Below the pieces are notes generated by a model that saw only the letters and a list, made by a program, of their open reading frames with translations, did not search any database and was not told the DNA's origin. A stretch of DNA of 60,111 nt, filler included, from Basidioascus undulatus (lineage: Eukaryota): assembly GCA_000826855.1 (NCBI GenBank). It is 3 parts of 3 records of this genome, joined end to end, with 100 filler letters (N's around TTAATTAATTAA, not from the genome) between each part and the next. Parts side by side here need not be neighbours in the genome. Positions count along the whole stretch, not along the records: positions 40,154 to 60,111 come from JTLS01000389.1; 2 more parts are not named here. One strand, written 5' to 3'. Made by a program: the position numbers and the translations under genes. Every line of letters begins with the position of its first letter. The first letter of the stretch is position 1. Of this stretch, positions 19,978 through 59,589 are shown piece after piece.

Positions 19978-20077
19978 NNNNNNNNNNNNNNNNNNNNNNN
20001 NNNNNNNNNNNNNNNNNNNNNTTAATTAATTAANNNNNNNNNNNNNNNNNNNNNNNNNNNNNNNNNNNNNNNNNNNN
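19978..20077. other. Artificial contig linker N44-TTAATTAATTAA-N44
   Basis: Exactly 100 nt. The core gives stop codons in all six frames and is identical to 40054-40153. Confidence 0.97.
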
Positions 20078-23392: not shown

Positions 23393-25581
23393 ATGGCTGT
23401 GTCTCCTGTTAACGTGAAGCGCATTTGCTGCAGTGAGCCCCTGTATTGTCTATAGTCCGCAGGTCGGAGCAGGAGGGGAGGCGTGGATCCCCGGGGAATC
23501 GCGAAGGGCGCTACCCCTTGCGTCCTCCCCTTCCAGGCCTGCCCACTGCTGGCGTCTCCCAGCGCTGACGCTCCCCTTCTCCTGCCAGTTGGCGCCGGCT
23601 ATGTCGGCGGTCCGACGTGCGCGGTCATCGCGCAGAAGTGCCCGCACATCCAGGTGACGATCGTGGACCTGAACGCGGCGCGCATCGCAGCGTGGAACTC
23701 GGACAACCTGCCCATCTACGAGCCGGGCCTGTATGAGGTCGTCAAGGAGTGCCGCGGGCGCAACCTCTTCTTCGACACCGACGTCGACAAGGGGATCCGC
23801 GAGGCGGACCTCATCTTCGTCTCTGTCAACACGCCCACCAAGAAGTCGGGCATCGGTGCTGGGTTTGCGGCGGATCTCAAGTGAGTGGACAGGCCTTCTG
23901 CTGGAGAATGGGTGGTTCCTGGGGAAGGTTGCTGAGGGTGCGGAGGGGGTGATCCAGCTATGTGGAGCTGGCGACGCGTCGGATCGCCGAGGTCGCGCCG
24001 GAGAGCAAGATCGTAGTCGAGAAGTCGACCGTGCCCTGCCGGACGGCCGAGTCCATGCGCGCCATCCTCGAAGCGAACGCGAAGCCCGGCATCCGGTTCG
24101 ACATCCTCTCCAACCCCGAGTTCCTCGCCGAGGGAACGGCCATCAACGACCTCCAGGCGCCCGATCGCGTCCTCATCGGCAGCTTGCAAACACCCGAGGG
24201 CAAGGCCGCTCAGCAGAGCCTGGCCAACGTCTACGCCAATTGGGTCCCGTGAGTGGAGGGAAGCGTGGGTGATGGGTGGCTGTTTGAGGCGTGGCGCTCA
24301 CCTGGTGGGTTCGGCAGGAGGGACCAGATCATCACGGTCGGGCTGTGGTCGTCCGAGCTATCCAAGCTCGTGCGTATTTCTCAGTCGAGCTGTCTGCTGC
24401 TGTGAGTATGCTGACTTGGAACTTGGCGAACAGGCTGCGAACGCCATGCTCGCTCAACGAATCTCCTCCATCAACGCGCTTTCGGCCATCTGCGAGGCTA
24501 CGGGCGCTAACATCGACGAGGTTGCGAACGCGGTAGGCAAGGACTCTCGATTGGGACCGAAGTTCTTGAAGGTCCGTATGCCCGACTGAGCGAGAGAGGG
24601 AGCCCCTGATGGCTAACTTGCTCTCTCGGTTGCAGGCGTCAGTGGGGTTCGGCGGGTCATGCTTCCAGAAAGGTTCCTGCGCCGCTCTTTCTTCTCCCCA
24701 CTTCCTTTCCCCCCTATCGCCGTGTAACGACTGACCGAATTGTCCAAATTGCGCCTTCCCAGACATCCTCAACCTCGTATACCTCTCCGAGAGCCTGCAC
24801 CTGCCCGAGGTCGCCGCGTACTGGCGGCAAGTGGTCGAGCTCAACGAGTACCAGAAGCGGAGATTCTCAAAGCGCGTGATCGAGACGCTGTTCAACACCA
24901 TCACGGGCAAGAGCATTGCTGTGTTCGGGTGCGTGCTGCTGCTCCCCTTCTCGCTCCCTCCCCTCCGCTCCCTCCCCTGACACCAACTTGGTGACTGCGT
25001 ACGTAGGTTCGCGTTCAAGAAGGACACGGGCGACACGCGCGAGAGCGCAGCGATCACGCTCGTCAAGCACTTCCGCGCCGAGCGCGCAAATATCCGGATC
25101 TACGACCCGCAAGTGGAGGAGGCGCAGATCTGTTCGTCTCCCTGTTTCCCATCGCCCTCATCACGCCCGGTGGCTGACGTGGTGCGGCGGGGTGTGTTGC
25201 GCAGGGATGGACATGCAGGAGCCCGGGCAGTCCCTCGATGCGGCGAAGGAGCATGTCTCTATCGCGCCGTCGGCGCTCGAAGCGGCCAAGGGCGCAGACG
25301 CAATCTGCGTCTTGACGGAGTGGGTGCGTCGCGCACTGGTCTATTCCTCCTCTTCTCCCTCTATACTTTCAACCTTCATTCCCTGACCGACCCGCTCTTA
25401 TGACCCTCGCGCCGCGCAGGACGAGTTCAAGACGCTCGACTGGGCGGCGATCTACGCGGGGATGAAGAAGCCCGCGTTCCTGTTCGACGGCCGGCTCATC
25501 CTCGACATCGACGCGCTCAGCGCTCTCGGCTTCTCGGTGCACCAGGTCGGCCGCGGGCAGGGCCAGGCGGGATGGTTCTGA
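23393..25581 (+). CDS. UGD1: UDP-glucose 6-dehydrogenase
   Basis: [13 protein letters not shown]ossmann motif; [56 protein letters not shown]; catalytic [28 protein letters not shown]; stop TGA 25579-25581. Confidence 0.97.
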
Positions 25582-27524: not shown

Positions 27525-29087
<1,563 letters not shown>

Positions 29088-29339
29088 ACTGGAGGAGTGT
29101 GACGCGACTTTATCTATACTTTTTCTTCTTTTCCTAGTTTATATTCGTGAGAGCTACTTTCCCTTGTCATCCTGGTTTGACTAGAACATGATTGCTCGTT
29201 TTGGTATTTTGCATTCGTCTTTTACCGGTATGCGAGAAGGGCTGTTGCGTGCGCGGAGTCGCGTCGCTGCTCTAGCGTTCGTGTGTTCAATCAGATTCCT
29301 AGGCTGGCCGTCGCAGGCCCTGTCAATGAACCGCATGCA

Positions 29340-40053: not shown

Positions 40054-40153
40054 NNNNNNNNNNNNNNNNNNNNNNNNNNNNNNNNNNNNNNNNNNNNTTA
40101 ATTAATTAANNNNNNNNNNNNNNNNNNNNNNNNNNNNNNNNNNNNNNNNNNNN
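40054..40153. other. Artificial contig linker N44-TTAATTAATTAA-N44
   Basis: Identical to 19978-20077. Confidence 0.97.
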
Positions 40154-40211
40154 GGAGGGGGGAGGTGGAGAAGAGACGCTGCGTGGGGAGGGGGACGCGG
40201 GGAGGACGCAT
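40154..40211 (-). CDS. 5' end of a truncated gene, possibly with a mitochondrial presequence
   Basis: MRPPRVPLPTQRLFSTSPL has no acidic residues and an RxFSTS-like motif. It runs into the linker. Confidence 0.35.
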
Positions 40212-41307
40212 GGGGGGTGGGGAGGATGGGGATGAAAAGAGCGGGGATGGGGTGTTTGAGCGGGAGCAGGAGGAGGAGGAAGGAGGAAGACGTGATGAGA
40301 GGAGCGCCCGGCAATCGGCAGTGATCGGAACGCCGGACCGGGTCATGCGCGCCCCTTCGCGTAACGTCGCGTTTGTCTTTCTCCCGCTTGCGTCTTCTTT
40401 GACCGTCACGTCCCGAGTTGCAGGGAGATCGTGGCGAACGACGAGTAGGGGGTTTGGATGATGATCTGAACGTCTTGATCTGGACGTATAGATGGGTACG
40501 GATGTGTACGATCTTGTACTGCGCTAGACTAAGTTATGTTGTGTATGTATGTACGTCCGCCTGTCAACCACCGGTTCAAACCCTGGACCGTGCGTGACAT
40601 TTGGTGATTATTCGGACGGACCAGAGGATAGATACCGTGAGCATTCGCATGTACAAAACTTGAAACGGGTCATCTTCCGAAAGGCGGGTCCAAACATCGG
40701 ACTAAAAATGCAGTTTGGACCAAAATATGTCTCTGTGCAGGCGTGCCAAGGTGTGGAAGCTTTAGTACGTCGGCCCGAGCCTCACGGTCACCGTTGCCCC
40801 CGAGTCTACCTTTTCATATCTCGCTTCAACCGCTGCGGAATATTTAGAAGTTCCAAATTAAACAGAAAGCAATATTCATGCGACAGACCAGCCCAAAAGG
40901 GATACATAGCAAGCTCGACCCACCCCATTCCGTCACTGTCCTGCGAGTCCAAGATTTTCCCTGGCCGTTGCGGCTGCAGCTGTGTAGACACTTTTCAAAC
41001 GGGGCACCTGCCCAAACCTTTTCTTCTCTTCTCTCACCATACAACTTCATTTTCCCTCAAGTTGCTGCGTGAAATACCGTCTGAAAGTACACGCAGTAGG
41101 AGGATCGTCGGTAGGAGCGGCACCCTGGCGAGATGACGCGCTCTGACGCTGACGGGCGCTGGAACTTTGCTCAGCTCCATCGACGTGGGTCACCCAAAGC
41201 ACCAGGATGCCTTCCAGCGCGCCTTCCTCCCCATCTTTACGACTGTCATCTCCCCATCACTGTCCTCGTCCTCCACATCCGCCGCCGCCGCCGCCGCCGC
41301 TGCGACG

Positions 41308-43125
41308 ATGGCGAGGCCCGACTGCCCCACGCCCCTTCAATCGCTCCTCTCCACGCTCCTCCTCCTAGCGCTCTCGCTCGTCGCGCTGCCGTTCACGCTT
41401 TCCATCGTTCTTCCGACGTACATCTGGAATCGGCTCTGGGGGAATCTCGCTTCTCAGCGTCCCTCGGGGGGCGCGACCCTATACGGCGCGAGGAGGAACG
41501 AGTGGATCGAGGCGGAGAAGGCGAGCTTGGACGATCTCGAGGAGCCTGTGCCGGTCCCGAAGAGCCGCGTGAGCGTGCTCGTGAATGGCGGCCGGACGGC
41601 GAAGAGCTTGGCGCTATGCCGTGCGCTGGCGAGGGCTGGGTGTAGGGTGGCGCTGGTTGAGGAGGAGGGGTGAGTGCGACACTTCTGATCGGTCTCTCAT
41701 TGTTTCTTGCTCAACATCTCGTCGGGGCCGCTCTTTAGATGGGGCGACTTCTGCGCCGCCCAATTCTCCTCGGCCGTATCCTCCTTCCACCTCGTCCCGC
41801 CTACCACAACCCCCGAAAGCCGGCAGGCGTACGTCTCTGCCCTCGTGCGCATCGCTCTCGAGGAGCAGGTCGACCTCTTCATCCCGTGCTCGGGCCCGGG
41901 ATCGACCGCCGAGGACGCGCGCGCCGCGGAGATCGTGAGCGCGGGGCGGTACGGACGGTTCAGAGGGATAATCCAATCTGAGGCGCTGATCAATGAGCTG
42001 CAAGACAAGGTGCGTCGGATAGTTCCCTTTCCATCAGCTGTCCGATGCGGGGGCCTGACAGACAGTGTTCTTCCATGCACACATAGAACGGCTTTATCGC
42101 CCTCGCGCGTTCGCTCGGTCTCAAAGCCCCCGAATCCCACCTCGTCACCTCCGTCCCCCAAGCGCTCTCCATCATCCGCTCCGCTTCGAAGCCGCTCATC
42201 CTCAAGGCTACCGCGACGCTCGGCGAACAAGGGCGCGCGGACCTAACGACCTACCCGCTCAAGGGCGACTCTTCGCCCGATCTGGCGCGCACGCGCGCGC
42301 GCCTGGAGAAGCTCGATATGCCGATTACGGAGGAGACGCCGTATGTCCTGCAGGAGGTCGTGGAGAACGGGAGCAGGTGGTGCACGCACGCGACGGTCGT
42401 GGAGGGTAATATCAAGGCGTTCGTGTGCTGTCCGAGTGTATGTCCCCAACACTTTTCATTTCCTCAAGCTCCCATACCTCATACTGAAGATTGATTTTGT
42501 TCGACCGATACAGAACGACATGCTCATGACCTACGTCGACGCGACGCGGACCTCGATCGGCCTCAAAGCCTTCACCTGGACGTCTGCCTTCCTCACCCGT
42601 CTCTCCTCTCACCCACTCGTGCGCGACCAGCCCTGCGGCCTCACGGGCCACTTCTCCTTCTCCTTCATCTACTCCCCCTCGTCCAACGCGCTCTACGCTC
42701 TCGCGTGCCACCCGTGGGTACACACGTCCGTCGTCCTCCTCGCGTCCAACCCCGCCTTCGCGCTCGCCCTCCTGGGGACCGCGCACGCCCCGGCGCCAGG
42801 GGCGGACCTGCACGCGGAGGACTCGACGATCCGGCCTGTCGCGGACAGCCCGCCACGGAGCTGGGTGGGGCACGAGCTCGCCGCGCGCTGGTGGCCGCGC
42901 TTCCTGCCGGATTGGGTGCGCCGGAAGTTGCACCCGTTGTGGAGAGACACAGGGGAGGAGAGGGGCAGCTGGCCGTGGTGCGACCCGACGTTCACCGTCG
43001 ACGACCCCCTGCCATTTGCCGCGCTGTACCACCTCCAATGGCCGGTTCTGCTGGTGAGGCAGATCCTGCGCGGGCGCGCGTGGTCGAGGATTAATGTTAG
43101 CACTGCGAGGATCTTTGAGTGCTAG
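41308..43125 (+). CDS. MysC-like (mycosporine-type) ATP-grasp ligase homologue with substituted catalytic residues
   Basis: Four exons. N-terminal hydrophobic helix (LLLLALSLVALPF); VLVNGGRTAKSLALCRALARAGCRV; EEQVDLFIPCS; LQDK|NGFIALARSLGLKAPES; PLILK; YVLQE; WCTHA; TGHFSFSF; DPLPFAALYHLQWP; terminal WSRINVSTARIFEC*. This is the overall architecture of the MysC family. Confidence 0.85.
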
Positions 43126-43406
43126 AGCGGATGGATGGATGGATGGGCGGGGCCAGGATTTAATGGGTACCTTATTGCACTTGCTTATTCTTGCGCGTTT
43201 GCCTGTGTTGGTGTGGTGAAAGCTGATCTCGGGTTCTAGGTAGGATGTGGAATACACTAGCCCAGCGCTCAAAAGCAACGGTTTCAGGGGGCGCGAGCCA
43301 CTGCTTGTGTAGCATGTTGCTGAAATGTTCCTTTTGTTTTCGCCCGCCACCTCCTCTCCTTCCTTAACTACGATCTTCATCCCTCACTCTCCCATCAGCA
43401 ACGTCA

Positions 43407-44800
43407 ATGTACATCGACCGACTTGACTTCTCTCTCCTCGAGCCCACCTCGGGACCTTGCCGCCGCGTGCTGGCACGTCGACGCGCTCCAGGCGCAGCTC
43501 GCTCGCCTCGACGACGAGCTTCCCTCCCTTTCTGCCCAGCTCTCTACATCATTGCCTCGATTCGAGAGGAAGCCGAGCGCCTCTCGTGCGCGCTCGCGCC
43601 CGCGGCTACGCCCGCGAGCCAGGACACCGTCGGGTCGAGGGGGAGAGCGCAGTACCAGAAGGAGGCAGTGGTTGGGAGGGTGCCGGGTCCGGTGGAGATC
43701 TTGGAGGACATCGTTGGATTGTTGGATGATGATTAGAAAGCGCTCCATGCGTTGACTTTGACATCCAAAGCTTTCAAGGACATCGCGACTCCGGTGTGCC
43801 TCCTTTCGTCCTCGATTCCCCGGCCCACTGCGGAACTGCCTTTTGGCCCGCAGTTGCTCAAATCGAGCCCCGGTTTCCGCAACTATAAAGCGACCGGCCC
43901 TCACCTGTCTTTCTCGCTCTGTAACCGGCTGCTAAACCACAGCCGGACGATCGCCCACAGCATTCGATCTTTCTTCAAGCATGGCAACTGGCTCGCCAAA
44001 GCAACCACAGTCTTCGATCTCTTAGACGTACTTCAGATCTTCGGAATGGACCTCGATATCGTGCGTCATGCAAATATTTCACCTCGAAGTGAATGTTGTT
44101 TTGCTGAGTGGGTGCCCCACACAGCCCCCAACGCTTCATTGAATCTCTCTACTCTCAAGAATCTCAGCTGCCTCAATAACGATGACTCGAAGTCTCAAGG
44201 CAAAGCACCCCTGCTTTACCGGCCTGCTGGCCAGCGAGCGCTTCAAGGCCCTGCGCCATCGGCTTCGCGTGCTCGTGGTACCACGAGCCTACACGTCCAA
44301 ATTGCTCAGCGCATTGGCCAAAGAAGCCCAGCAAGGGAAAGGCAGACTTCAAATGTTTGATTTTACCGATTACACGGACGACCATAGGCTCGTGCAGTTT
44401 TTGAAACTCGTCCGCGACGGCAAGTGTCCGGACTTGCACACACTCAGTTTGATCGGAGATCAGGTGCGCGCCATGTTTTCTTGTAAGCTACCCTTCTATG
44501 GATGAGGTAATCTCACCTAGATTCTGAACCGATGGTCCAGTTCCATCTCGGCGAACCGGAAAACGAAGAAGCGTTGGACATCCTCCCCAAGCTGAGCCTC
44601 AGCAAGCGACTCGTTGTGGAGTAGAAAGATCGCTTCGACTTCACCGAAGCTGACATCGAGCAACCATCGGAGCACCGTAGGTTTCTTGTCGCGTGTTCTT
44701 CCTTCTCGCTATTGACCCTACGCCTTCCATTTCGACTTTCTGTTCGCATTGTGGCTATCTGACAGTCACGGGGACTGTTTCGACTGGTCCTTTGGTATGC
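43407..44800 (+). pseudogene. Pseudogenised paralogue of the F-box/LRR gene at 9228-10721
   Basis: Colinear similarity: DDD*KALHALTLTSKAFKDIATP vs KDDQKSLYALTLTSKLLKDIVMP; FLKLVRDGKCPDL vs FLQLVKEGKLPDL; DIEQPSEHR vs SIEHPSEHR. In-frame TAGs at 43734-43736 and 44621-44623, plus frameshifts. Confidence 0.8.
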
Positions 44801-45013
44801 TCATTGAGCGAGACATCATAAACAGTATTCAGATAGAAACGCACGCCCGGTCAGACCGACGCATACTGCGACCGTAATACGTCCTGACAGCCGCAACGGC
44901 ACAGTAAAGCAAGCCCGGCAGCCACGCACAAGCCTCTGATATCAACTTGAACCCATAATGTCTTCGCCCCACCCCCCCCCGCACTAAAGTAATACAGATG
45001 CAAATCGAGAGAA

Positions 45014-46598
45014 TCAGGCGAACGAGCAGACGTAGTCCGTGGGGAGGGTCCCGTTGTGGTTGAGCACGACGTCGAGGATGCATGACTCGAGGTTGGTCAC
45101 CGCTGGTGGGATAGACTGGCTGGTGATGATGAAGTAGTTTTTGATGGCGGAGTTGATCGAGTCCAAGAGGGAGGAGGATGGAGAAGAGTCGAGGAGCGAA
45201 GAGACGGCTACGCAAGTGCGTCACAAGCATCAGCCGGCTGAGCTGTTTGAGAAAAGGAAGGAGAAATACTAACTGTCGGAGAGGGCAACGAAGACGTTCG
45301 GCCCAAGGACGCTGAAGGCCTGGTCGATTACCCCGTTCACCGCAGCGCGAAGAGGAGAGACGACGGGGCCGTTCTGCGTGGCGATCCAAGCAAGGAGGGC
45401 GGTGAGCTCACAGCGAGGTAACATTGCGCTGCCGGGCAACGTACAGTCGCAAGGCACTCAGCCGGAAGTTTACCGTTGGAGGCAAGGGAGTAGTTGATGC
45501 AGTGTTCAAGCGCCTGCAGGGAGGTGACGACCGCAGGCGTGGCAGAAGTGGTGGAGAGAAGGGCGTTCGAGACGGCCGGCTGGACTATGTCGAACGGAGT
45601 GTTGGTCTTCGGGATGAGAGGTCCAATCTCTATGCACCGAGGGTCAGATACTTAGCTGAGAAGGAAGAATATCGGACTTCTAGGCGGCTGGATAAGAAAC
45701 AACTTACGGGCGTTGAGGTCCTGCACGATGTTGGGAGGGAGAATGCCGACAAATTGCTGCAGCGCGCCGTTGAAGATGTTCTCGAGATTAACGAGGGGAG
45801 TCTTACAGTACGTATAACTTCAGCAAGGTAGTCTGTAAACAAACGAGCCAGGAAACAGCTCACCGCGACGAAGCACTGGTATCCTTCCTGGATGCCGCCC
45901 CCGAGAATAATCTTGTCCAGACACGGCTGGGCGTTCTCGAACGCGGACACCGTTTCTCCAGAGGCCGAGGAAGCGACAGAGAGCATAGCGGAGTTGATGT
46001 TGTTCACCAAAGTGTCGGAGGACGGGAGGATAGTGGTAATAAGAGGTGTGATCGTCTGCTGGAGGCCGCGGACGATGTTCGGCGGCATGACACCTGGAAC
46101 GATAAGGAAAGTGCACTTCAGCTAATGTAGAGCAGAAACCGGTTCAGATTGAAAGAGCCCACCGGCACCCTGCTCGATGGCAGCATTCAAAGCGGTGCGG
46201 AGCGACGCCGCAGTGCCGCCCTGACCGATGAGGCATTGCTCGCCCTCCTGCAAGCCCTTTTGCCTGCTCGCGATCTCGCTCAAGCAGTCGACGATTCCGA
46301 CGACAGCGGCCTGGGAGTTCCCTGTCGTCGTTGCCACGATGCTCTTGACTCCAAGATTCAGGGTGTTGACCAAAAGCTGGACGCCAACGGGCGTGTTCGG
46401 CGTGATGAGCATGGGCGTGAGCGTCGACTGCAGAGTCGTAACGAGGTTGTTCGGAAGGATGGTCGCCTGGGAGAGGATGGTGTTGAGCGAGGACTGGAGG
46501 TAGTTCGGCTGGCTCGAGGGCAGGTTGAGGCCGAGCAGCGGGGCGGACAAGGCCGGCGCTGCCGCCGAAAGCGCGAGGAGCGGGATGGAGACGCGCAT
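45014..46598 (-). CDS. Secreted protein with four tandem ~90-aa repeats, each with a Cys pair
   Basis: Signal peptide MRVSIPLLALSAAAPALSA. Splices by eye into one frame ending ...DYVCSFA* (TGA 45014-45016). A TATA-like TATAAA lies on the minus strand near 46670. Confidence 0.8.
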
Positions 46599-48458
46599 TT
46601 GCAAAAGCGAATGACTGGGGTGAGCTGAGTGAAGGAGCGGAACGGGCTTGACGAAGCCCTGAAAGGTTTATATGAGTCCGGGACTGAAAGAGGTAAGTGG
46701 AGTGACGATGAATGAGGTGAGTGTTGAGGGCAAGCAAGGTGACTTCCGGTCCGTTGCAAGTGGGGTGGCGGCCAAGCCACAGCGAAAGTTTACGCAAGCA
46801 ACGCGCTAACCCGGCCCAGACGCTCGCTACTTCTTGCAGGTCGCCCAATTCAATTGTACTGCCTTGGACGGGAGTGTACTTAGACTAGTTGATGGAATGC
46901 CTGTGCATGGGGAGAAAGTCCAACGCATGCCAGCTACGCAGTAGCGGGAGAGGCAAGCTGTGCGCTGTGCATGTAAGGCAAGTAATTCTAATATAGCAGG
47001 CAAACGCACTTGTGGTAATGATTGCCATCCAAATGCCGAAGGTGGTAGGTAGGCTGCCAGAGCTGTTTCGGTCCGATTGTAGATTGTCCACGGACTTCGG
47101 CAGGCTACTGGACTTTTGTGATAAGACTTAACCTACCGCTCAGAGACTTCTAGATACGTTTCCATGAACTTTGAGTCCAAAATTTGGCAGTGATATCAGG
47201 GCGCAACAGAAATGCAGTGCTCCGTCTACCCTGCAAAGCTGGCCGTAGAAGAACAGTCGGTAGCCTTCCTCTACCCTGGAACCAGACTTTTTACGGTCAG
47301 TCTGAACTTCAAAACTGAATGCTCCCTTCGGTGTTATACAGTTACTCACACCAAAGTTGTCCTGGAGGGCGCGAAGCTGACTGGAGCATGACTCTCCCAG
47401 CCTGTTTGAATGGCCGTAAGGCATGCACCGGCGCTGTATGCGTGGAGTGAACTCATACAATCTTTCGAGCCCACATGAAATTTAAGCTCTTCAATGAAGA
47501 ATTCTTTCTTTGCGGCTTCTTGAACGGCGCGAACACTAGGGAGGCGACGTCTTCTATGTTCGGGTGAGTGTCGATCTGCACCTCCGTCCCAAGCCAGTTG
47601 AGCTTCTTGCTTCACCCCTCTCTTCATTTCCCTATAACAGTAATGAGGATGGATATCTTTTAAACATCGATTCCAAAATGTGACCACCGCAGAGGCACGG
47701 GCACGGCCGGTACGCAGGTCTAGGTCTGTTTTCCTTCGGTCTTTCAACCGGCCGGGACTCCTGATCCCACCCATTACTGATCTGCAAAAATGAAAAAGTA
47801 ACTGCCCCCTGCCAGGCTCGAACTGGCGACCTTTGGATGTCCCTTCTCAAGGAGAAGTCATATTTCTATGAGACCACTGCGATACCAACTTCGCCAAGGA
47901 GGCTGTGGGACCTCCCTCCCCTTGTAATACTCATATAGATCTGCCTATTCTTTCCAAAAGTCATGCAAAGTTGGTCATATCAAGACGATTCTGGGTTGGA
48001 GACAGGCTGAAAACCATGACACGGCGAAGGACCCGGGGTCCGAGAAGACGCTGCCTCCCGTGCGCAAGACCTTAAATTGATTTCGGAAGATGTCGACCAG
48101 TGCCTTGACCACCACTCGCAGAAGAGGACATACACTGTAGTCGAACTCAAGTTGAAGTACATTTGTTTCGTCGCTGCTCTGTGGTCGAGAAGATTGCAGA
48201 CGGGAAACACCGTCCCACTGCAAAGCCCGGTTCCGTGCGCTTGGACCCCTCCTTCCCATATATATTCAACATTCATCACCCAGATGAATATTATTGAAGC
48301 GAAGACATCATTAGTATTCAACGGTAGTATTGTAAATGCTCGAGGAGCTCAGGCCTGGCTTAGGGTGCCGCTGTACGGAAGCCTCAGAAGATTTGAGTAA
48401 GATGGGTGCTGTGCTACGAGCTCTCACTGCCCTGCAAGTCTCTTCCTGAGGGATCGCG

Positions 48459-49815
48459 ATGCCAGTGATCTACAAACTCGAGGTGGTATAGCGGAGGTGG
48501 CTGTCTGACTTCCGTGGGTATATCCGTTCACAGCATGTCCACATGTACCTAACGTGCAAGTGGGGATCCCACAGGCTTGAAGCACGCTCTGGTCACCTTA
48601 TCTGTGCTCTACTTCGTGTACTGGGCTCTCTGGGTCGTCTACCAGCTTTACCTCTCACCTCTCCGCGACATCCCTGGACCGAAGCTCGCGGCCGTCTCCA
48701 GCCTGTGGCAGACGATCCCTCTGCTGTCGGGAATGAAACCCGCAGCGTTCCATGCGGCCTACCAAGCCCACTGCCCGATAGTTCCGTTGCACCGAACATT
48801 GTTTCTTTCGTGGATGCGGACACAGCAAAGTCTGTCTACGGACACAAGGGGTATGTGCTGGCTTGTCTCAGTTGCTGGGAAGCGTTCGCTCATGTCTTGC
48901 ATCTCACACAGCAAATTTGATCGTTCCCAAATTTACGTTGGTGAGCCGCTATTCCTGTTGAAGTGTGCGTACACCGCTGGACACCGCTTTGGCCCCAGCT
49001 ATGAGCTTCATGGATGCCCCGCAACTGTGAGGGAATGTCGAAAGGGGTTTGTAGAGCGCACTTTGCTGACGTTCCCGAGCTCTCTAGTTTCACTCTACTG
49101 TGCGTTCCCTGAGCTGACAATTGAATGCGTCTGACCTGTCTCTCTGCTCGTCTTTCACCGGCGGTCCGTTCTTGGCAGTCCCGCACAAGCGCGTTCGGCA
49201 CAGCGGAGATGCAATATCTCAGCAACTCGCAGGCCAACGTTGTCTCCTACGAGCCAGCAGTCAAGGACGCAACGCGGGAGTTGGTATCCCTTCTTCGTAG
49301 ATATGGTGGAAGAACAGCGTTCGATTGCCTTTCGCTTTGTGCACCTTGTTTGCCCTTTCCCGCATCTCTCCAAAGCGACTGACATTTGCGCACTTGCCCA
49401 CCTGCAGTTCGATACTTCATCAGCGAGGTCATCAGAATTGTCGCTCTTGAGAGCCGTGCACTGTCCTCACCACTACGATGCGGACGCTCCGCATCATGCG
49501 CTGCCGTTCCGGCGTTGAAGACATCCCGACCCGCGGCGCTGTGGTAAGCATCGGATCTCAGTCTTCTTTGGCTCAACGCTCTTACAAGAGAGCCTTCCTG
49601 CAGACGAATCAATTTACATATCCTCGTGTACAAGCTTCCGCCCGGAACCGTCGTTAGCACTCAGGCGAGTAAACTCGTGCACAATAGCAACTCTCCGCTG
49701 ACCGGATTACTCGTCGGATTCCAGGCTTGGACTGTCCATCACTGGAAATCGTCTTTGAAAACCCGGAGAGCTTCGTGCCCGAAGACTGGCTGAAGGAGAT
49801 TGAGCAGATGAGGGT
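48459..49815 (+). pseudogene. Cytochrome P450 pseudogene (N-terminal half only)
   Basis: TM anchor plus YLSPLRDIPGPKLAAVS, then PIV.VAPNIVSF with a 1-nt frameshift at about 48785. No ExxR or FxxGxRxCxG heme motif was found downstream. Confidence 0.8.
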
Positions 49816-51827
49816 GAGTGCGACCGTGGGAGGTGGAGGAAAGTGAAGAAGTGGATGAGGGGGGGATGTGGTGGATTGTGTGGTTGGGGTTGGATAGGAG
49901 CTCGGGGGGAAGGAGGGAGGGATGGGGTGCAGGAGGTGCTCGGGAAGGAATGGTTGTGAGGGACCTTGGCGACTGCCACATCTTGGGACTGTGCGAGCTT
50001 TGACGATGAATCTAGGCATCTTCGCGTATTATTCTGGCATCACTGCTATTGCAATATAGAACTTGGCATATTACGCTCGAATCTTTTAGTGAATAGCATG
50101 CGGTGCGGTTTTCGAGGCCGCCCGGCGCCCTGTTGAATTGAGATGAAGCTGAGAGGACATACTGCTGCGCTAGAACAACTTCCAATTCTATAAATATGGG
50201 GCAGCCTACCGCCTTGTCGAGGGCATGTTGACGAGTCACACCCTGCTCCTTTGCTTGATCGGTGAACCATACGTTGCGGCGATTCTCGAGGTCTGCCATG
50301 TCCTCCCAGCGTGTCAACGTGCCAACGCTGGCTGTACACACAACGGATCGACTCGCTGAACCATCACATGTGCTATTTATATTTCGTCTTCGTATCCGTT
50401 TTCTCTTGCTGCACTTCAGCCCTCCGCTTCTCACAGCCGTGTGGGTACTTTCGCAGTCGGTCAATCTACGCCTGGAGAACGCCCAGCTTCGCTCGCAGCT
50501 CAGCCTCCTCCTCCTCGAGTTCGCCGTCTTCTCGGTCGGCGTCCCTAAACCCAACGGCCCAGAGCTCCTGGATCGCAGCGTTACAGCGCCTCTCATCCTC
50601 GAAAGTCCAGGGGTGGTGTTTCAACCCAGCTGCATTCGCGTTGGGGACTGGGTCAGCCGCAGCAGACGGCAGTGGGAGGCGGTGGCACAAGCGGTGCTGC
50701 TACGGACCGTAAGTGATTTCGACAAGCGGAATCGCCTCGTGCCTCTGTGAGGATGAGGACAACATAAGTATTCTCTATGGGTTGATAAGATGGTCGATCA
50801 ATGAGGCGTTAACTCGCGAGAACAGCGGATTCTGAAGGAGCAAAGTTTGAGTTTACAACACCCTTCTGCTCTGCTTGCCACTTTCTTTTGACTTTTCGAG
50901 GAGTTATCCGAACATCAAGTGGCTATCGCATTGGACTCTGTGCGCGGTAATTGACTGCTTGGGTCAAGCAGACAGCCGGTCCCGCATGCAATGCCTTTGG
51001 CGCTCCCCACAATGCTCAAGATTGATGATACTTGCGTCGCGTTAGACCATACTGCTATCGTGAACTGGTGTTTTCCGGCGTGACTTGAGAAACCATTACA
51101 TCAAGAGTTAAAGTTACAATATCCCCTTTCAGCGACGGCCAAGTGTAACGGCCGTACCCCTTCAGTGGGCAGCGGCCTGCGCGAAACAAGAGAATGCCAT
51201 GCAGCACATATGTACAGTACATTGATCAAGCTAATCAACTGGCCAATGTCTTTCTTCACATACGTGTGCAGTTCAGTCATACATGAAGCCCTGCGGGTTA
51301 GAAACCGACGACCGTAACTGTAGCTGCGTGTGCCTCGCTTTCATGCAGCCGCAGGGCGATCCACGGCGCGTCTGTGAGGGTGTATGCATCCAAGGGCTTA
51401 CAGTTACGTCGTTTTCCTGATATTCTTTGGTGGAACAGAAAGTAAGGAAATGAACATCAGAAAACGCTTGCCGCGGGACGCCTGCTCAGATAACAGCGGC
51501 TTCCACCATCGGCCAGCTTGCGGGCTGTGCCGGGCGCTTCCAGGGCGGACAAAGGTCCCGTCTCTCGTTTCGTGATCTCCTTTATATGTCATGTTATCCG
51601 CTTGTGATCAGCCCCGGGACTTTACCCAACACGAACATCAGCTGTTCGACCAAATGCCCCCCTAACCGTACGGCAGTCCCGCCGATGTAGCGATTGACTT
51701 GGGCCGCCACTCAAGTAGAGCCTTCCCTTCTTGCCCTAATTGCCCCCCTCCCTTTTCTTCTTCCAATTTTCCAACATTCACCGTTTGTATTTTGACTAAT
51801 TGATACGTACACTATCACTTACAACAA

Positions 51828-51908
51828 GTCGCTGTAGTATAGTGGTTAGTACATCACGTTGTGGTTGCTTGATCCGTGAAGACGGCAGTTCGATTCCGCC
51901 CAGCGACA
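51828..51908 (+). tRNA. tRNA-His(GUG) with 9-nt intron (51865-51873)
   Basis: Acceptor GTCGCTG/CAGCGAC; anticodon arm TCACG-TT GTG G[TTGCTTGAT]C-CGTGA; T loop TTCGATT (one A:C mismatch in the T stem); T7 terminator. Confidence 0.9.
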
Positions 51909-52159
51909 TATGTTCTTTTTTTCCCACCCATCGAGCGGCGATGAAGAGTTTTCGATGAATTGTCTTGCCTTCTTTAGGATGGGAAGACCAGTTGACTTGA
52001 GAATGTTCAAGCAATAAACGTCTTGAGGTCTCGTACTCAAACGGTCCATTGCCAAGATCGTCCCAGTCCTTCCTCTCACGGACAGCTCCGCTCTTTTGTC
52101 CTCTCTCCCGTCTCCCCATCTTTTGAGTCGAAACAACCAAACCTTGAGCTTCACCCACC

Positions 52160-53030
52160 TCAATCATCGACTCGAAGCAATTGCTTCGCCCCTTCCAGTT
52201 GAGAACTGGTCGGATATCTTTGAACTCGCTGTGGGGGAACACACTGCGTTCGCCATCACGGACCGCCCAATAGCCAACGGCGGTTCCACAGCTGCTCAGA
52301 TCGCGCTCGTATGCCATACCTGAAATGTGAGCACAGACTCCTGTTAGCTAGAGACTTGGGATGTGGCGCTGGAGTCCGCTGGGCGTGCTGAGTACTGACT
52401 GCCAGTGGCTGGCTCCAGCGCGTGATCATCCCCTGACTTCGCCGATCCGGACGTGAATTTGCTCGTCTCATCCCCACTTTCGCTGGCATTCGAGCCTTTC
52501 ACTTTACCCCATCTGTGCGATCTCGACCTCTACCTCTCAGACAAGCGCAGCGCCGACGCGCTCATGGCTCTGGGCCGCTGCTGTTCCCGCGCTTGACAAC
52601 GCTCACGTTCGACGACGATTCGTCTTCTCCTGAATCTATAGAGCTTTTCTTCATGCGCCATGCCCCGAAAGGCTTGAAGGAGCTGAGGTTCTCTATCTCG
52701 CATGCGCATGAGCCGCTCATCGTCCGGCTGTGCGAAGAACTGACAACCTTTGTCCTTGACGTCTCCCGAGCATCTTTCTCGAGCGTTATGGCGGGCAACC
52801 TTCCGACCTCGCTCTTGGAGGTAACACGTTTCGATTGACAGCACGACTATGACTGCCCAGGATATAATCACCATGCTCCAGTCGCTGTCGCGCGCTGTCC
52901 TTCCCTCGCTTCGCATCCTCAGGCTCCCCAACAGCGCTAAGGATGTGCGCCCGGCCGATACTGTAGCCGTACGGAACGAAGTGGCCCTGAGGGCAGTGAC
53001 GGTGGTCCGTAGCTGCAGCCTCTGGTGAAG
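52160..53030 (+). pseudogene. F-box/LRR-like pseudogene
   Basis: LPVENWSDIFELA...IALVCHT*, with TGA 52321-52323 where W is expected. Then LFPRLTTLTF, GLKELRF and LPSLRILRL in shifting frames. Confidence 0.6.
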
Positions 53031-55107
53031 CGCGGCGGCGGTCGGTCACATGTACTCTTTCTAGATTCTCTTTCTGCTCGTCACTGTGTCTAATATGTGA
53101 CATCGTCTTTTATTATGTCCGGTGGTCTGGGTGTACGCCAAATGAAACCAGAAAGTGATGTTATTGATTGGTCCGTGCAAGGTTAGATCACATTGCTCAC
53201 TTCGCTCATGCCAGTGTGCCTTTTCAGGGAATCTTGCCGCCGAGTGCACTCAAGCCCTCTGGGGAATACTGGGGGCTAGGGAAGCTACCAGTTGGAGAGA
53301 AGACGTATCAGGCTTTGGAAGTGCAAGTCGGTCGAGGTATGGCAAGCATCGTATTTGCCGGTGTCTGCCTCGCCCACCAACTGGACGCCTAACCGCCCAG
53401 TTTGCCTTTAATACGTAAACCCTATCTCAAGACCTTTTGAGGATTTTACAGTACATAGTAGAGGCTGTGGGGCTCGCTCGAGCAACTCCAGCACCCCTCG
53501 AGGCCTCAAACTTTGAACTATCCTGCCGTGTTCCTTCGCTTCTCTCCAAACACCCACCAGCAACCTTAAAAAAGCTTAATACATTCTTACTTAAAGCCAC
53601 CCTTCCACCCAAATCATCCAAGCGCGCAAACACCACATGCCTGTCGCAGTAGCTGTAAGGGAGAGCAGAGCGCTTCAATGCCAACGCGCCTCGCGAGAAG
53701 CGGGAGGCCGCTCATAGTGCTTCCTGTGTTTGCGACTATTTTTGTACGGATGTAAATTATATTCAAGTATTCGAGTGTAAATGTGCATAATGGGGAAATC
53801 AGAGGGAGAGATGGAAGGGTAAGAGGCGGCGTGCAGGCTGGTCCGAGAATCCACTTCACATTTCATCGCCTCGGCACCCAGGCGGGTTGAGCATTGAATC
53901 GGTTAGCTGGATGGATCGCATTATTCGAATAATTAGATTAGAACCGAAGTTCGCCATTGTCTGCGAACGATTAACCTCCCGTTGACTACCCGGGACCTCG
54001 TGCCTCGTGGACAGCGTCGTCTGCCCCACCGCTTTGCGCTCGCACTGAGCAGCAGACGGTATGCAAAAGCGCCTTGTTACGTCTTGGCATGCAGCAGTGA
54101 GAAGTTGCCTCTGTACGGGCTTTCGGAGGAGTGTGCCGCAGTAAGAGTCGGAGGCCAGCTTCCTGTTCATGGTGGGAGACGCTCCTGACAAGTCCAGGCT
54201 GAGCTGTCTGCAGCGTTGCGCCCCTGCCCCTACCTGGTAGGTTAGGACGCTCCTACTCTTAGGGGTAGGACTTGGGCACGATGTTGGAGCTGGGGGAAAG
54301 AAGAAGGATGGGAGCAGGACTCGGAGCGCGAGCAATTGCCCCACGGTCACTCGCAAACAAGCGCCTTCGCTATAGCCCGATGTCGTCGTTGATATTCAAG
54401 ATCACAGAAAGTGGGTAAAGAAGTTTGATCAGGTATTATGGAAGAACGGCTCGACGTCGAAACGACTGAACACGTCGCGCACGCGCGCAAAGATAAATTG
54501 CGGGACGCGTCTGCATTGACAGGCGTCCTGTTGCCCACGTCCACCCTCCATACCAAAGCACCTTCCGCAAGCGGCCAACAGTCTCTCCGGCTTTTTGATA
54601 TCAAATGCATCAATTGACGACTTTGGAAGCAGTCCATCGCCGTGAACGCAAGTGAACGCATGCGACGCAGGCGCCACAAAGTGACGTGACGTGACAGCTC
54701 CTCCCTCCCCGCTGCGTGCGACCATCCCAAAAGCGGCAATCGCGCGCGTCATGCGTGACATGACAGCACTCAAGCTCCATCTGCCACATGCCTGCCAGTT
54801 TTCCCGCGCCCTTGCGCTGCCCATAAGAACGTCCTTCAACCTGCCCCCTCGCTCTCTCGTTCCCTCGTTCGACCACCAACGACCGCCAGCCGACAAGACG
54901 ACAGGTTCGCAAGTCCGCAAGTCCCCGCCTACCGTCCCGCCCTTTTCGCATCTTCGACACTCAGCGCTAGCCGCTCTCAACCAACGACGACATCGACGAC
55001 TGGCTCATCGACATCGACCGACTTCCATTCACCCTCGATTCGACCACTTCGCCCCGCGCTTCCCCCTCCCACCGCCCGCACCACCCCCACCCGCCAACAA
55101 GCCAACC

Positions 55108-55425
55108 ATGCGTTCCCCCCTCTACCTCCTCGCCGCTGTCACCCTCCTCCTGGCGCTCTGCAGCTCCCACTCCACCGCCCTCCCGCTCGCGTTCCCCGCC
55201 GCCGGCGCAGCAGCCGCCGCGCTCGTCCCCGTCGCGGCATCCACCGTCCCGCCCTCCGGCCCCGCGCAGGCGCCCAACGCGCTCACCGCGTTCAAGCAGA
55301 AGCTCTTCGGCGCGGAGGGACGGCGGCTTACGCGCCGCGTGAGTGGGAAGAGCAAGGGTCAGGGGAAGGCCAAGCGCGCGCTGACGGGGCCGCACTCGGC
55401 TCGGCGGATGAGGGCGCATGTTTGA
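55108..55425 (+). CDS. Small secreted protein (105 aa) with strongly basic C-terminus
   Basis: MRSPLYLLAAVTLLLALCSSHSTALP signal peptide, good ACCATG context, GC-rich codon usage like the core genes, intronless. Confidence 0.7.
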   Translation: MRSPLYLLAAVTLLLALCSSHSTALPLAFPAAGAAAAALVPVAASTVPPSGPAQAPNALTAFKQKLFGAEGRRLTRRVSGKSKGQGKAKRALTGPHSARRMRAHV

Positions 55426-57399
55426 GCGGGGGGAGAAGGGGGTGCGGGCAGGCGGGGACCGTCAGCGGAGGGCAGGAGGAGGCAGGGGCGCAGGACTGCC
55501 CACCTTCGCTTCGGCTTTCTACTTCATCTTCTTCTCGCGGACACTGGACACTCGGACTCGGACTTGTGCTCTTGAACTCTTGTATGGCTGGTTGGCTGGA
55601 TTGGGGCGGGGGAAGGAGGAGGGTAGAGCGGGACGGTATCATTATCGTAATTTGGCGGGCGCGGCGGATGTTTGCATCGGATCGCACTTACTCTTGACTC
55701 CAGGGATGCTGTGGGCGTACGCCTCTTCTGCTCCGACACACTTAAGTATGAGGCGAGCGCCAAAACCCGCGAAGCAGGCAGAGTTGTAATCAACACCCGG
55801 GTCGACCAGTACAACCGTAGCACGTCGCCTGCGTGAGCCTCCCCTACCCGGCTCGCCCTGCTGTTCTATTGCTGCCCAACGCCTGTAGACTTTCTTAGTG
55901 CAATAAGGGGTTCCCGCTAGGAATAAGAGCAGGGGGCAGTAGCGAAGGACACAGAAAAGGGCGCAGCCGCATCTGCGGGCTTCGCAAGCCGAGGCTTCGG
56001 GAGTACTTCAGCGCGCCCAAACTTCGACCACTTCCTTTCCCTTTCCCATTTCTGGGATGCTAATTAAGGATGAGAATGAAAGATGCGGCTGCAGAACCGC
56101 ACCGCCCGAGCGATGTCAGAGGTATACGCTTAGCGGCTTAGGTATGTGCCACAGCGTTGATATAGCAAAACGAGTACCTGACCTCACTTCCTCACCCAAA
56201 GAGAAAAGCAGCTTCAACAGCCTGTCGCGGTAGAAACTATGATGCTCGGTTACGACGACTCTCGTCCCCGAGGCCTTGGGATGCAATTTCAGCCTCAGTC
56301 GTGGCAACCTGCCCAGATCCCGGCCGGCCTTGGCTGCCCGGCTCTCATCACCTCCCAAGTGAAAAAGCTCTCACAGAGAATAATTGACCCTGGATTCCGT
56401 CGAGGAGTTTGTAAGGGGAGCGGGACGGAGTCTGAGGGCAGCAACAGCCATTGTTACTGCCTGTTCGGTATGCCGGTACTGTGGGTTGCCTCAAACCCGA
56501 TCACTGCGTACGGGTTCCTCAAGCATGCTGCATTTCCATTAGAAATAGGGTGAGTTGGTCCTGATCTGGCATCACTTTGAACAAATCAGTCACCCTTCGA
56601 CAGCACTTTCACAAGGGGTAAAGAAGGCGTGTGCCCCGCTCGGAAAGATCCGTACGCAGGGATGACCAGATACTTCATGAGCTGTCAGAAAGAAAGAGCT
56701 GGGTCATGGTGGGAACGGACACGCTAACTGACCATGCCTACGTAGCTGACATCGAGGTCTCCGGCTTTCATCCTGACGGAAATACACGCTCAGTTTTTGT
56801 TATGATTTTCATTTGTACCGGAAAGGGTACCTTTCATGTTTTCCAGCCAATGTCCTTTGTGCCTCGACCTCCCCCTATGTCTGCCTGAAAGCGTAACATG
56901 TCCGCGACGCTCGGTGAGGGTGCTGCTAGATCAGGAGCAATGGAACACATTCTCTCGCCCCCTGCCACCCAATTTTCGGCATAAACGACTAAGAGGAGGA
57001 AGATCACAGGCGAATGCATCCTGCACTAGCCTACGCACGAACACCGAAGGGAGGGAACACGGGAACTGCAATTCGGGACGACCTGAAAATCAAATAAATG
57101 TGAAAATGCCCGTCTCTACGAGCAATGTTTATGAAAAGATCATCACGGAATCGAAAGGTCAGAGTGTGTTTCAAATATATGTGGGGCTAGGCGAAGTAAC
57201 GCCGTCCTAAACGCATCTGAGAGCGACTCACATCAGCCCTGTTTTCCATTGTACCTCTCATGGCTGTGTATGAGAGGCGGTTTCACATGAGCACGGCCAG
57301 GACACACCCAACCAAACCTTACAGCGTCCACACAGCACCCACGGTAAAAGAGGAAGCTCAACAGGCAGAGACTTTCCATGGACAAGCACGAATTAGGCC

Positions 57400-58150
57400 G
57401 GACTACATGGGCGGGTGCAGTTCCTTCCTATTGTACATCACCGCTACTCCCCGCATGGCAAAGCGCTTTGCAACATCATTGACCTCGCCGGACAGACTCT
57501 CATGGTCGCCAGAATTTGCGCGGAGTTTGACACATTTAAGTGATGGGAAAGCGCCATGAAGGAGATGTTCGGGCCCCTGCATGAGGCCGACCTCCCGCTC
57601 GTGCAAATAGATGTCAAGCTGAACCAGCGAAGGGGGACAGGCTGCAATGCGGTGGCGCTTGGGCGTGCATGCTTATTCACTAGATTGCGAAGCGCAACGA
57701 GATGTCCGATAACGTTGATATAATCAGGGAACCTGTATTCAATAAAAATGTCGAGCTCGGTAAGATTGGTAAGATTGTTGAATGCGAGCGCATGCAACGT
57801 CACAATCCCGCTAGGCAGGATTGAAAAGCAGGCCTGCTGAAGGGACCGGGTAAACGAGAGGACGTGTGATAAGAGCGTCTTGTCGAAGCTCTGGGTTTCT
57901 GAGTTTGAGAGCACAATGAGATGTCGAGTGTATCGAAGGGGCTGACGCCCTGCGAGATGGAGTCTGACAAGGAGAAGGTCGAACGACCGGATCGCGGGTT
58001 CTTCATCAACGAAGACCGCCTGGTACCGATGTGGTTCAGAGCTGAGCGGCAGGTAAGGAATGAGGAGCGTCACAGTCGTGTCGCACTATAATGCTTCATC
58101 GGAGGTCTTGAGGGGTACGGAGATGACTCACGTTCGCGACACAAGCGCGA
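57400..58150 (-). pseudogene. LRR-like gene remnant
   Basis: FNNLTNLTELDIFI, HLVALRNL and AFPSLKCVKL lie in discordant frames. Confidence 0.35.
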
Positions 58151-59442
58151 TGGAATGGCCTGTAAGATGAACACCAGTACGGCCGAGACGGCGGTTGACG
58201 TAGCCGCCGATAGCAAGCTCAAAAATATGCGACCAGACCTCGACTGGTAGCTGAGGAGCCGACATTGGTGAAAGAGTGGAGGAGGTTGACGGGGAACTTG
58301 AGGGAGGTGATGATGGCGCAGCCTCCTTGCGGTCTCCGCTGCCTGGTCATCGGCCCTGCGGTGTTCAGGTGCTCCTCACATTCATATCGGTGCTCCGCAT
58401 GCTCCAACCTGTGTGAAACAGTCCTTTTTTCGCTCATGAACGGCGCTATCGGTAGCGTGCATTATCTTTGCTGTTCTGCGTGAGGAGCACCCAACCGCCA
58501 CAGAGCGGGAGTGAGCAGAACGTTGACAAGGCTGTACTGGAGTATAGGCTATTCACTGAGTATAGGCGATTCACTGTAAGGAGTAGTTGCTGTGCGATCT
58601 GCCAATCACCGTTGTACAGCCCAGCTGCAGCTGACGGCTTGGTACCGGCTCGATCATAACTTTCACTGTTCCGTGCTATTACACTTTCCGGCAGCAAAAA
58701 ATTGGCCGTCCCTACAATTTCATTTCACTGAGGACAATCTCGCAGCTATACAATAATGCACTTCGCCGGTTTTGCCCTTTCAGGAGAGGGGGGAAGGGTT
58801 TAACATATTTATCTCCTACCACCGTGCGAAGAGGTGGTCAAAAGTAGAAGGAATTTTGTACGTTCCAAATTGCGTGCCCAATTGACCTGCCCCAGCTAGT
58901 ATGAGAAATCTCGTGCATCCGGAATGAAGTACGGAATGCACTACACGCTGCGCGCAGTGATCTCTACCTCCAAAATCGAAAATGCTGGAAAGGTAGCCCT
59001 AGGATCCTTCTGGAATAAATACGTCTGTTAAAGAATATTTTGACAGTCAACGCCAATCTCCAATAGTCTAATACAAGCGTTGGGACCCCTTGAATGACCT
59101 ACCTTTGGCCACAGCTTATGGGACATAATAAATTTGGATTTGGACAATGCAGCAGTCGCTACACTGGCCCTTTCCTATTTAGATGCAACCAAATCTGACT
59201 AAATAAACACCTTTGAAAGGTCCCCCATACATTTTGTGAACTGCCTACAGCATAAGGCGTGCGAGAACGAGTCAAACACTGGTACAAACACGAACGAGGC
59301 ATCACCACTCCTCTCTTTGAATCTCCTCGGGGACATAGCTTAGCAGGCAGCTCGGGAGTCCCGGGAGTAAGATCTAGCACTTGTTGAAGTTGAATAGGGA
59401 TTTGGATTTGATATACAAAGAATGCGGAAGGTGGAGCGTGTA

Positions 59443-59520
59443 GCTTGGCTGGGGTAGTGGTAACCTGGGTCGTTGCCATCCGATCTCGACCCGCCCCGTG
59501 TTCGATTCACGGGTCAAGCA
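59443..59520 (+). tRNA. tRNA-Gly(GCC) with 7-nt intron (59479-59485)
   Basis: Acceptor GCTTGGC/GTCAAGC; anticodon arm GGTCG-TT GCC A[TCCGATC]T-CGACC; T arm CCGTG-TTCGATT-CACGG; T4 and T5 runs downstream. Confidence 0.9.
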
Positions 59521-59589
59521 ATGTTTTGAACTTTTTGCCCTGAGCGTGAGCATTTGGGCTGCTTGGGGTCTCTCCCGAGACACGGTGAA

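Follow-up and report, generated by a model that had tools for sequence, protein, structure and literature searches.

A MysC-like ATP-grasp gene of Basidioascus undulatus with a replaced metal site: probably a disabled but maintained member of the mycosporine ligase family

The window analysed here is a stretch of 60,111 nucleotides from the Basidioascus undulatus assembly GCA_000826855.1, in which runs of N (19978-20077 and 40054-40153) separate three pieces, each about 20 kb long. Its third piece (40154-60111, from JTLS01000389.1) carries at 41308-43125, on the plus strand, a gene resembling those for MysC/ATPG, the ATP-grasp ligases of mycosporine biosynthesis, in which the residues expected at the metal-nucleotide site are replaced. 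What, then, is this gene: a relic, an enzyme with a new chemistry, a ligase rescued by other means, or a protein kept for a role other than catalysis? A sequence-only reading had proposed a candidate pseudoenzyme or neofunctionalised protein, an interpretation that our analysis supports in part. The explanation we prefer, at a probability of roughly 60%, is a catalytically disabled but maintained MysC/ATPG homologue, that is, a pseudoenzyme or a re-purposed protein.

The equivalence of the altered residues was established by alignment. A profile alignment of 35 diverse full-length family members (A2), with 20 invariant columns, matched Escherichia coli carbamoyl-phosphate synthetase (CPS) in the PDB with an E-value of 1.4e-6, and placed the family motif SfDF...IECNpRvH on both ATP-grasp domains of CPS (residues 279-304 and 823-848). 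These segments contain Q285/E299/N301/R303 and Q829/E841/N843/R845, which we take to be residues of the metal-nucleotide site. The same alignment put the lysine of the family motif LHEKD on CPS R129/R675 and the lysine of ILK on R715, residues that presumably contact the phosphates. In the Basidioascus gene, positions 42643-42729 encode T372 to S400 (TGHFSFSFIYSPSSNALYALACHPWVHTS), a segment without any acidic residue. Within it, the codon TCC at 42661-42663 (+) specifies S378 at the position of a family-invariant Asp, the first metal ligand (CPS Q285/Q829), and 42703-42717 (+) encode A392-C393-H394-P395-W396 at the position of the family E-C-N-P-R (CPS E299/N301/R303 and E841/N843/R845). Further upstream, the codon AGG at 42375-42377 (+) gives R308 instead of an invariant Glu (E280 in the Phaffia enzyme described below). 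Together these five replacements need at least seven nucleotide changes, at least two each in E308R and D378S. The replacements D>S, E>A, N>H and R>W listed in the sequence-only reading were thus recovered at the metal-nucleotide site by alignment to CPS, and the gene does contain its motif at 42643-42729, RWCTH (R308), QEVV (Q300) and the C-terminal motif; its family counterpart of RWCTH, given as EYCTH, had to be corrected, the basidiomycete relatives reading EWCTH.

The signature of the ATP-grasp superfamily, as given in a passage of Galperin and Koonin (PMC3249071), consists of three Glx/Asx magnesium ligands, two phosphate-binding Lys/Arg residues and an adenine-binding Glx/Asp. The Basidioascus protein has S378, A392 and H394 in place of the three ligands D, E and N. 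The phosphate-binding basic residues are kept (K211 in LQDK, on CPS R129/R675, and K251 in LILK, on CPS R715), and so is Q300-E301 in LQEVV, at a family-invariant Q, the candidate adenine contact. The earlier claim that the whole Mg-ATP catalytic set is replaced was therefore correct for the metal ligands and the Arg, to which E308R and A400S can be added, and overstated for the rest, because the phosphate-binding lysines, the hinge and family-specific residues remain (K211, K251, R261 and Q300-E301 among them). As aligned, the predicted protein has all three metal ligands replaced, along with the conserved Arg and one more invariant Glu, and has retained the lysines, the hinge, the family-specific residues C310, H312, C393 and H398, and the C-terminal motif.

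The changes are concentrated at this site. In an alignment of 45 rows, conservation was counted per column with each row left out in turn. The Basidioascus protein keeps 13 of 19 invariant columns, where every canonical row keeps at least 95%; 34 of 42 columns conserved at 90% or more, where the canonical rows have a minimum of 0.82 and a median of 0.95; and 60 of 72 columns conserved at 80% or more (0.83, within the canonical range of 0.69-0.99). The invariant residues lost are E308R, D378S, E392A, N394H, R396W and A400S, and with R129Q and I391L these make up the eight changes at columns conserved at 90% or more. The residues kept include K99, K211, K251, R261, Q300, C310, H312, S328, Y335, C393, P395, H398, W445, D492 and R520. 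All four classical ligand columns are changed, and among the remaining 38 columns at or above 90% conservation, four are; the probability of such a fall by chance is C(8,4)/C(42,4) = 6e-4 (hypergeometric).

The C-terminal motif WSRINVSTARIFEC (43081-43122, +) matches the majority consensus of the smut-type clade at 14 of 14 positions. These last 14 residues are almost invariant in the basidiomycete members, and even bacterial MysC shows them in the recognisable form W.R(I/V)(N/D)...(K/R)..E. Such conservation suggests a functional element of the family that has so far gone unrecognised, perhaps a lid or a part of the substrate pocket.

Does the gene belong to the MysC family at all? The four exons gave no Pfam match, and no NCBIfam model bears the name MysC. 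All four exons matched NCBIfam NF005315 (PRK06849, an ATP-grasp "hypothetical protein") collinearly, at model positions 4-36, 43-86, 120-215 and 250-378 of 389. When exon 4 was used in a word-based search limited to longer proteins, 40 proteins were returned at about 30-43% identity, and all the named ones were from smut-type fungi. Only 143 proteins reached E <= 0.001 when 1.84 billion cluster representatives were searched exhaustively with HMMER. The third-best HMMER match (E 8e-34) represents a cluster of Phaffia rhodozyma and P. aurantiaca proteins named "ATP grasp ligase". When the spliced protein was compared by BLASTP with 204 family proteins, this cluster gave the best full-length score, with 44.7-46.1% identity over 488-537 aligned residues; over 467 columns of the tree alignment the identity to Phaffia ATPG is 49%. 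A passage of PMC10057719 places Phaffia ATPG in a DDGS-OMT-ATPG cluster and describes that its deletion leads to accumulation of 4-deoxygadusol, while addition of ATPG to DDGS and the O-methyltransferase in yeast yields mycosporine glutaminol.

The genomic context of distant members points the same way. A profile scan of metagenome contigs recovered five distant loci, all canonical at the catalytic sites covered. In two of them, L003 and L004, a bacterial relative directly follows a DHQ-synthase-like gene, a HAD hydrolase gene and a Methyltransf_3 gene, and in L004 the MysC homologue is followed by a D-Ala-D-Ala-ligase-like gene, which is the mysA-mysB-mysC(-mysD) arrangement. The "MysC-like" label of the sequence-only reading is thus supported by homology to the proven Phaffia enzyme and by the context of these distant members, and the gene is assigned by sequence to the MysC/ATPG family. 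In both clusters (L004 3593-10353 and L003 3891-8435) a HAD-type hydrolase lies between the cyclase and the O-methyltransferase, and L004 also has a TauD-family dioxygenase gene downstream of the MysC homologue. A further locus, L005, was rejected as a mys cluster.

No MysC-family structure was found by a PDB sequence search with the family profile, and a passage of a 2023 review still calls for one (PMC10666671). PDB searches with single exons gave no match for exon 4 and only matches at E 0.3 to 1.1 for exon 3. An AlphaFold model of Phaffia ATPG, computed on the A2 alignment, is confident (predicted local distance difference test score, pLDDT, 91.7; predicted template modelling score, pTM, 0.92), and a Foldseek search with it recovered biotin carboxylase, PurK, YwfE/BacD and CPS at E <= 1e-12, with only 13-18% sequence identity. 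We infer by homology a three-domain ATP-grasp fold for the Basidioascus protein as well. An AlphaFold model of the exon-4 product alone was uninformative (pLDDT 55).

The replacements are rare among the relatives. In the alignment A1, 15 of 15 relatives read FSxDFI...(I/V)ECNPRVHTA. The states at the D, E, N and R sites were then counted in phmmer alignments of 178 family proteins: 138 read D-E-N-R, 15 fragments read ?-E-N-R, 18 do not reach the sites and seven read otherwise. The odd readings include DENH, GENR, DESR and NENQ, and several of them differ at one site only. One apparent non-canonical protein (P0114, "IGLW") was discarded as a phmmer misalignment, being canonical under MAFFT. The E-x-N pair is absent only in the Basidioascus protein and in P0142, a protein of 498 residues from an ENA assembly, which is the sole other truly degenerate member of the 178. 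P0142 reads A/A/K/S, has lost the ILK lysine, keeps nine of 19 invariant columns and sits on an end branch of 2.17 (0.61 for the Basidioascus protein). Its loss is independent, since it is placed in an ascomycete-type subgroup near Colletotrichum. The pattern is more suggestive of general decay or runaway divergence; P0142 may be a copy in decay or a second divergent non-enzyme. As to one refuting condition named with the sequence-only reading, the variant motif occurs in none of the relatives known to be active.

The gene itself is intact. The spliced coding sequence of 1596 nucleotides encodes 531 residues with no internal stop. Coding exon 1 (41308-41669) contains the start codon, a hydrophobic N-terminal anchor and the beginning of the pre-ATP-grasp domain (LVNGGRTAKSL, NCBIfam match). 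Intron 1 (41670-41738, 69 nucleotides) precedes exon 2 (41739-42009), which ends in LQDK with K211, and intron 2 (42010-42086, 77 nucleotides) precedes exon 3 (42087-42437), the central ATP-grasp part with LILK (K251), GR (R261), LQEVV (Q300) and SRWCTH. After intron 3 (42438-42513, 76 nucleotides), exon 4 (42514-43125) encodes the C-terminal part of the ATP-grasp region, which contains the altered metal site, a C-terminal extension and the stop codon TAG (43123-43125). All these features are on the plus strand and all three introns are GT..AG. The exon junctions EEEG/WGDF, LQDK/NGF and CCPS/NDMLMTY agree with the relatives, without insertions or deletions. Upstream of the ATG at 41308 there are in-frame stops and no earlier in-frame ATG, and a GCC/CCG triplet run (41262-41313) lies immediately 5' of the start codon. 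Residues 12-36 or so (41341-41415, +) form a strongly hydrophobic helix (hydropathy 2.6), predicted to be a membrane anchor; it is common to the relatives in the alignment and corresponds to helix 8-47 in the Phaffia model.

Three public runs were compared over 40900-43500: X1 (2014, study P1), X2 (2025, study P2) and X3, from the sample of X2. The contigs of X1 and X2 cover this interval with no difference from the window, and no polymorphism was seen in the runs. This agreement is not independent support, because either run may be the source of the window. The triplet run at 41262-41313 was passed over as a repeat in the comparison, and the X2 contig reaches about 5 kb beyond the upstream limit of the piece (40154). 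A contig of X3 (record 6, 1672 letters) covers 41055-43012 and omits exactly the three predicted introns and 41110-41173, and no other letter, while carrying the variant motifs. The region 41110-41173 is a 64-nucleotide GT..AG intron in the 5' leader and 41055-41109 a non-coding first exon, whose 5' limit is the end of the contig rather than a mapped start (both +). The leader exon brings the transcript to five exons, of which four are coding. The removal of four canonical GT..AG introns at once leads us to take this contig for a spliced transcript, and the size of the run (15.7 Mb in 36,764 contigs) also speaks for it. The gene thus appears to be expressed, with splice sites that are intact and apparently used. 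The unbroken four-exon gene of the sequence-only reading is borne out by both the reading frame and the spliced contig. The ExNPR that it named as a refuting observation was seen in the contigs of none of the three runs, X1 and X2 not being independent.

The rate of evolution provides the main argument for selection. A tree of 45 rows and 502 columns (IQ-TREE quick search, LG+C20) placed the Basidioascus protein in a clade with support 99, at a three-way split with Phaffia ATPG and 18 smut-type proteins. The next branch out is Kwoniella, and the sister group consists of Mixia and Agaricomycetes. The end branch of the Basidioascus protein, 0.61, equals the median of all rows (0.94 for Phaffia and 1.09 for Kwoniella), and its path from the clade ancestor, 0.74, is the shortest of the 20 tips, the others ranging from 1.02 to 1.52. 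The non-catalytic parts thus appear to be kept by selection, since the protein is the slowest of its clade, with splice sites and C-terminal motif kept, despite a full catalytic replacement that includes double nucleotide changes. In the same tree, Mixia, the single Pucciniomycotina protein, groups with the Agaricomycetes, while the Tremellomycetes (Phaffia and Kwoniella) fall with the smut clade. The gene tree is thus no simple reflection of the species tree, and old paralogy or transfer within the family is possible.

The preferred explanation, a disabled but maintained homologue, can be put as follows. The product would be a membrane-anchored member of the fungal MysC/ATPG ligases, which join an amine to 4-deoxygadusol, and, as predicted from its residues, could no longer carry out the Mg-ATP-dependent phosphoryl transfer of its family; a passage of PMC10666671 describes the phosphorylation of the C3 hydroxyl of 4-deoxygadusol by MysC. 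The rest of the protein would still be kept by selection and would have a fold like that of its relatives. It may still bind a ligand, such as a nucleotide without the catalytic metal, the cyclohexenone or the amine substrate, and may act by binding rather than catalysis, perhaps by regulating an active enzyme or partnering it, or as a protein that sequesters or senses at a membrane. A more specific proposal, which we make only tentatively, is a MysC-derived membrane-anchored binding protein whose acidic Mg-ATP site has given way to a pocket of neutral or basic character (R308, S378, H394 and W396 beside the invariant C393 and H398). Such a protein might be a "prozyme"-like partner, a sensor or a sequestering protein for mycosporine or 4-deoxygadusol metabolism, or a new metal-dependent enzyme on an ATP-grasp scaffold.

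Several alternatives have to be weighed against this explanation. The gene could be a young relic: mycosporine synthesis would have been lost in the lineage and the ligase gene would recently have become unconstrained, being still in frame and transcribed without a function. This we consider unlikely. It would agree with a piece in which no cyclase or O-methyltransferase accompanies the gene, with natural Phaffia strains that, according to a passage of PMC10057719, lack the cluster and make no mycosporine, with a variant seen in one genome only, and with the precedent of P0142, which on its end branch of 2.17 resembles plain decay or runaway divergence. Open frames are also cheap in this GC-rich DNA, where long ones arise easily (an antisense frame of 323 residues is one example). 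Neutral decay, however, should strike conserved columns evenly, which is at odds with the ratio of 4/4 metal-site to 4/38 other columns. Two catalytic codons carry at least two nucleotide changes each, which implies that these sites were relaxed for a long time, the remainder being fixed throughout. A relic is also hard to reconcile with the shortest path of a clade of 20 tips, with splice sites that are all intact and used, and with a 14-residue C-terminal motif that matches the consensus throughout. The earlier claim of a selective loss rather than random decay is upheld by the column counts, the clade path and the spliced contig.

The same signs of maintained selection would fit a neofunctionalised enzyme, whose remodelled pocket (S378, C393, H394, H398, R308 and W396) supports a chemistry without Mg-ATP, for example through a Cys-His-x3-His metal site or by covalent catalysis on a mycosporine-like substrate. 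The replacements do more than delete a function: the new His is adjacent to the invariant Cys393 and precedes the invariant His398 by four residues, position 308 has its charge reversed, and the pocket, judging from its residues, would have turned from acidic to neutral or basic. Against this, the altered motif matched no known enzyme family, the model of the exon-4 fragment is poor, the neighbourhood offers no pathway hint and the argument is one of residue identities; we regard such an enzyme as improbable, more so than a relic. ATP-grasp enzymes are commonly oligomeric, and a partner subunit, or other residues of the same chain, might supply the metal ligands of a protein that is still a ligase. 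With K211, K251, R261 and the adenine hinge kept, nucleotide binding is conceivable. Nevertheless, T372 to S400 holds no acidic residue that could stand in for the ligands, P0142 is the only companion without the E-x-N pair among the 178 proteins, and the superfamily signature, as given in a passage of PMC3249071, requires three Glx/Asx ligands. We think a surviving ligase very improbable.

Some observations weigh against a disabled but maintained homologue as well. No relative closer than about 49% identity was found in a word search of 5.8 billion clusters (two length ranges), the exhaustive search of representatives and two metagenome scans, so the variant is known from a single genome; the scan with the Basidioascus exon gave 613 pattern matches and no relative. 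One strain, that of the window, may lie behind both X1 and X2. X3 is recorded as "DNA?", not RNA, and its interpretation as a transcriptome comes from the four skips of one contig and the size of the run. An upstream open reading frame of 53 codons in another frame (41207-41368, +) begins in the 5' leader, runs across the main start codon and might reduce translation. The tree comes from a quick search and leaves the three-way split at the node of the Basidioascus protein unresolved. Finally, the four positions of the column test had been named beforehand by the sequence-only reading, though the superfamily signature defines them independently.

The neighbourhood was searched for the other mycosporine genes. 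As the pieces are joined by N runs, statements on it hold only within 40154-60111. Neither a DHQ_synthase (cyclase) nor a Methyltransf_3 (O-methyltransferase) domain, nor any other Pfam domain, was found in the 33 long and 128 short frames of this piece. It covers 17 kb on the downstream side of the gene and about 1.1 kb on the upstream side, where the methyltransferase sits in Phaffia. The absence of both genes from the 20-kb piece noted in the sequence-only reading was thus confirmed for these 161 frames. In the roughly 17 kb downstream (43400-60111), frames of at least 55 residues (161 in the piece) gave no Pfam domain and one sub-threshold chance match only; non-coding DNA, very short exons or genes particular to the lineage may occupy this region. 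A tblastn search with three relatives showed that the window holds one copy of the gene only.

The other two pieces contain genes for a telomerase reverse transcriptase (RBD domain, 3400-4020), a UDP-glucose dehydrogenase (23570-24600) and an NAD-dependent epimerase/dehydratase (27550-29100). These genes are split into short exons; therefore the genome is intron-rich, and the organism reads as an intron-rich basidiomycete. The UDP-glucose dehydrogenase exon served as a baseline for the lineage: it showed 81-87% identity to many basidiomycetes and none was closer, so the collection holds no close annotated relative of the organism.

Among known systems, the closest is ATPG of Phaffia rhodozyma (P0183/P0184, in the P0043 cluster). 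The two proteins are alike in length (500 residues against 531 in Basidioascus), N-terminal helix, domain order, type of C-terminal motif and clade. They differ at D349, E363, N365, R367 and E280 of the Phaffia protein, where Basidioascus has S, A, H, W and R. They also differ in setting, since a passage of PMC10057719 places the Phaffia gene 621 bp downstream of the O-methyltransferase gene in a three-gene cluster, whereas no such neighbour was seen within the Basidioascus piece. Bacterial MysC shares the PRK06849-type family, 30-32% identity to exon 4, and the C and H residues around E-C-N-P-R; the homologues of L003 and L004 differ in their canonical catalytic sites, their mysA-mysB-mysC(-mysD) clusters and a C-terminal motif of the form W..ID.NIGKLVE. 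The cyanobacterial example of MysC, Ava_3856, is taken by name from passages of PMC10666671 and PMC3249071. P0142 resembles the Basidioascus protein in having lost the whole D/E/N/R set, and differs in its ascomycete-type subgroup, the loss of the ILK lysine and its long branch.

Precedents for ATP-grasp proteins that do not catalyse exist outside the family. Synapsin is described in a passage of PMC3249071 as having the ATP-grasp fold without known enzymatic activity. By this description it is a precedent for an ATP-grasp protein that binds rather than catalyses, but it belongs to an unrelated branch of the superfamily, in animals, and the Basidioascus protein differs from it by being without metal ligands. 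TTLL12, a tubulin-tyrosine-ligase-like protein of ATP-grasp type, was reported to be without ligase activity (PMC3520985); it is of another family, with a SET-like plus TTL-like architecture. Non-catalytic ATP-grasp proteins are thus already known; no dead mycosporine ligase was described in the open-access literature that we searched.

Mycosporine biosynthesis is studied as a source of natural sunscreens, and MysC-type ligases perform its committed amine-adding step. With its scaffold and presumed substrate-side residues kept, the Basidioascus protein may serve as a natural probe of which residues bind 4-deoxygadusol and which bind Mg-ATP. If the gene is only a relic, it would be a record of how such a gene dies. 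As a disabled but maintained homologue, it would add a case from fungal secondary metabolism to the short list of non-catalytic ATP-grasp proteins. Should it prove to be a binding protein or a new metal-dependent enzyme, the mycosporine ATP-grasp family would have its first member that is not a ligase, and if the protein regulates or partners an active ligase, it would reveal a hitherto unknown layer of control in fungal UV protection.

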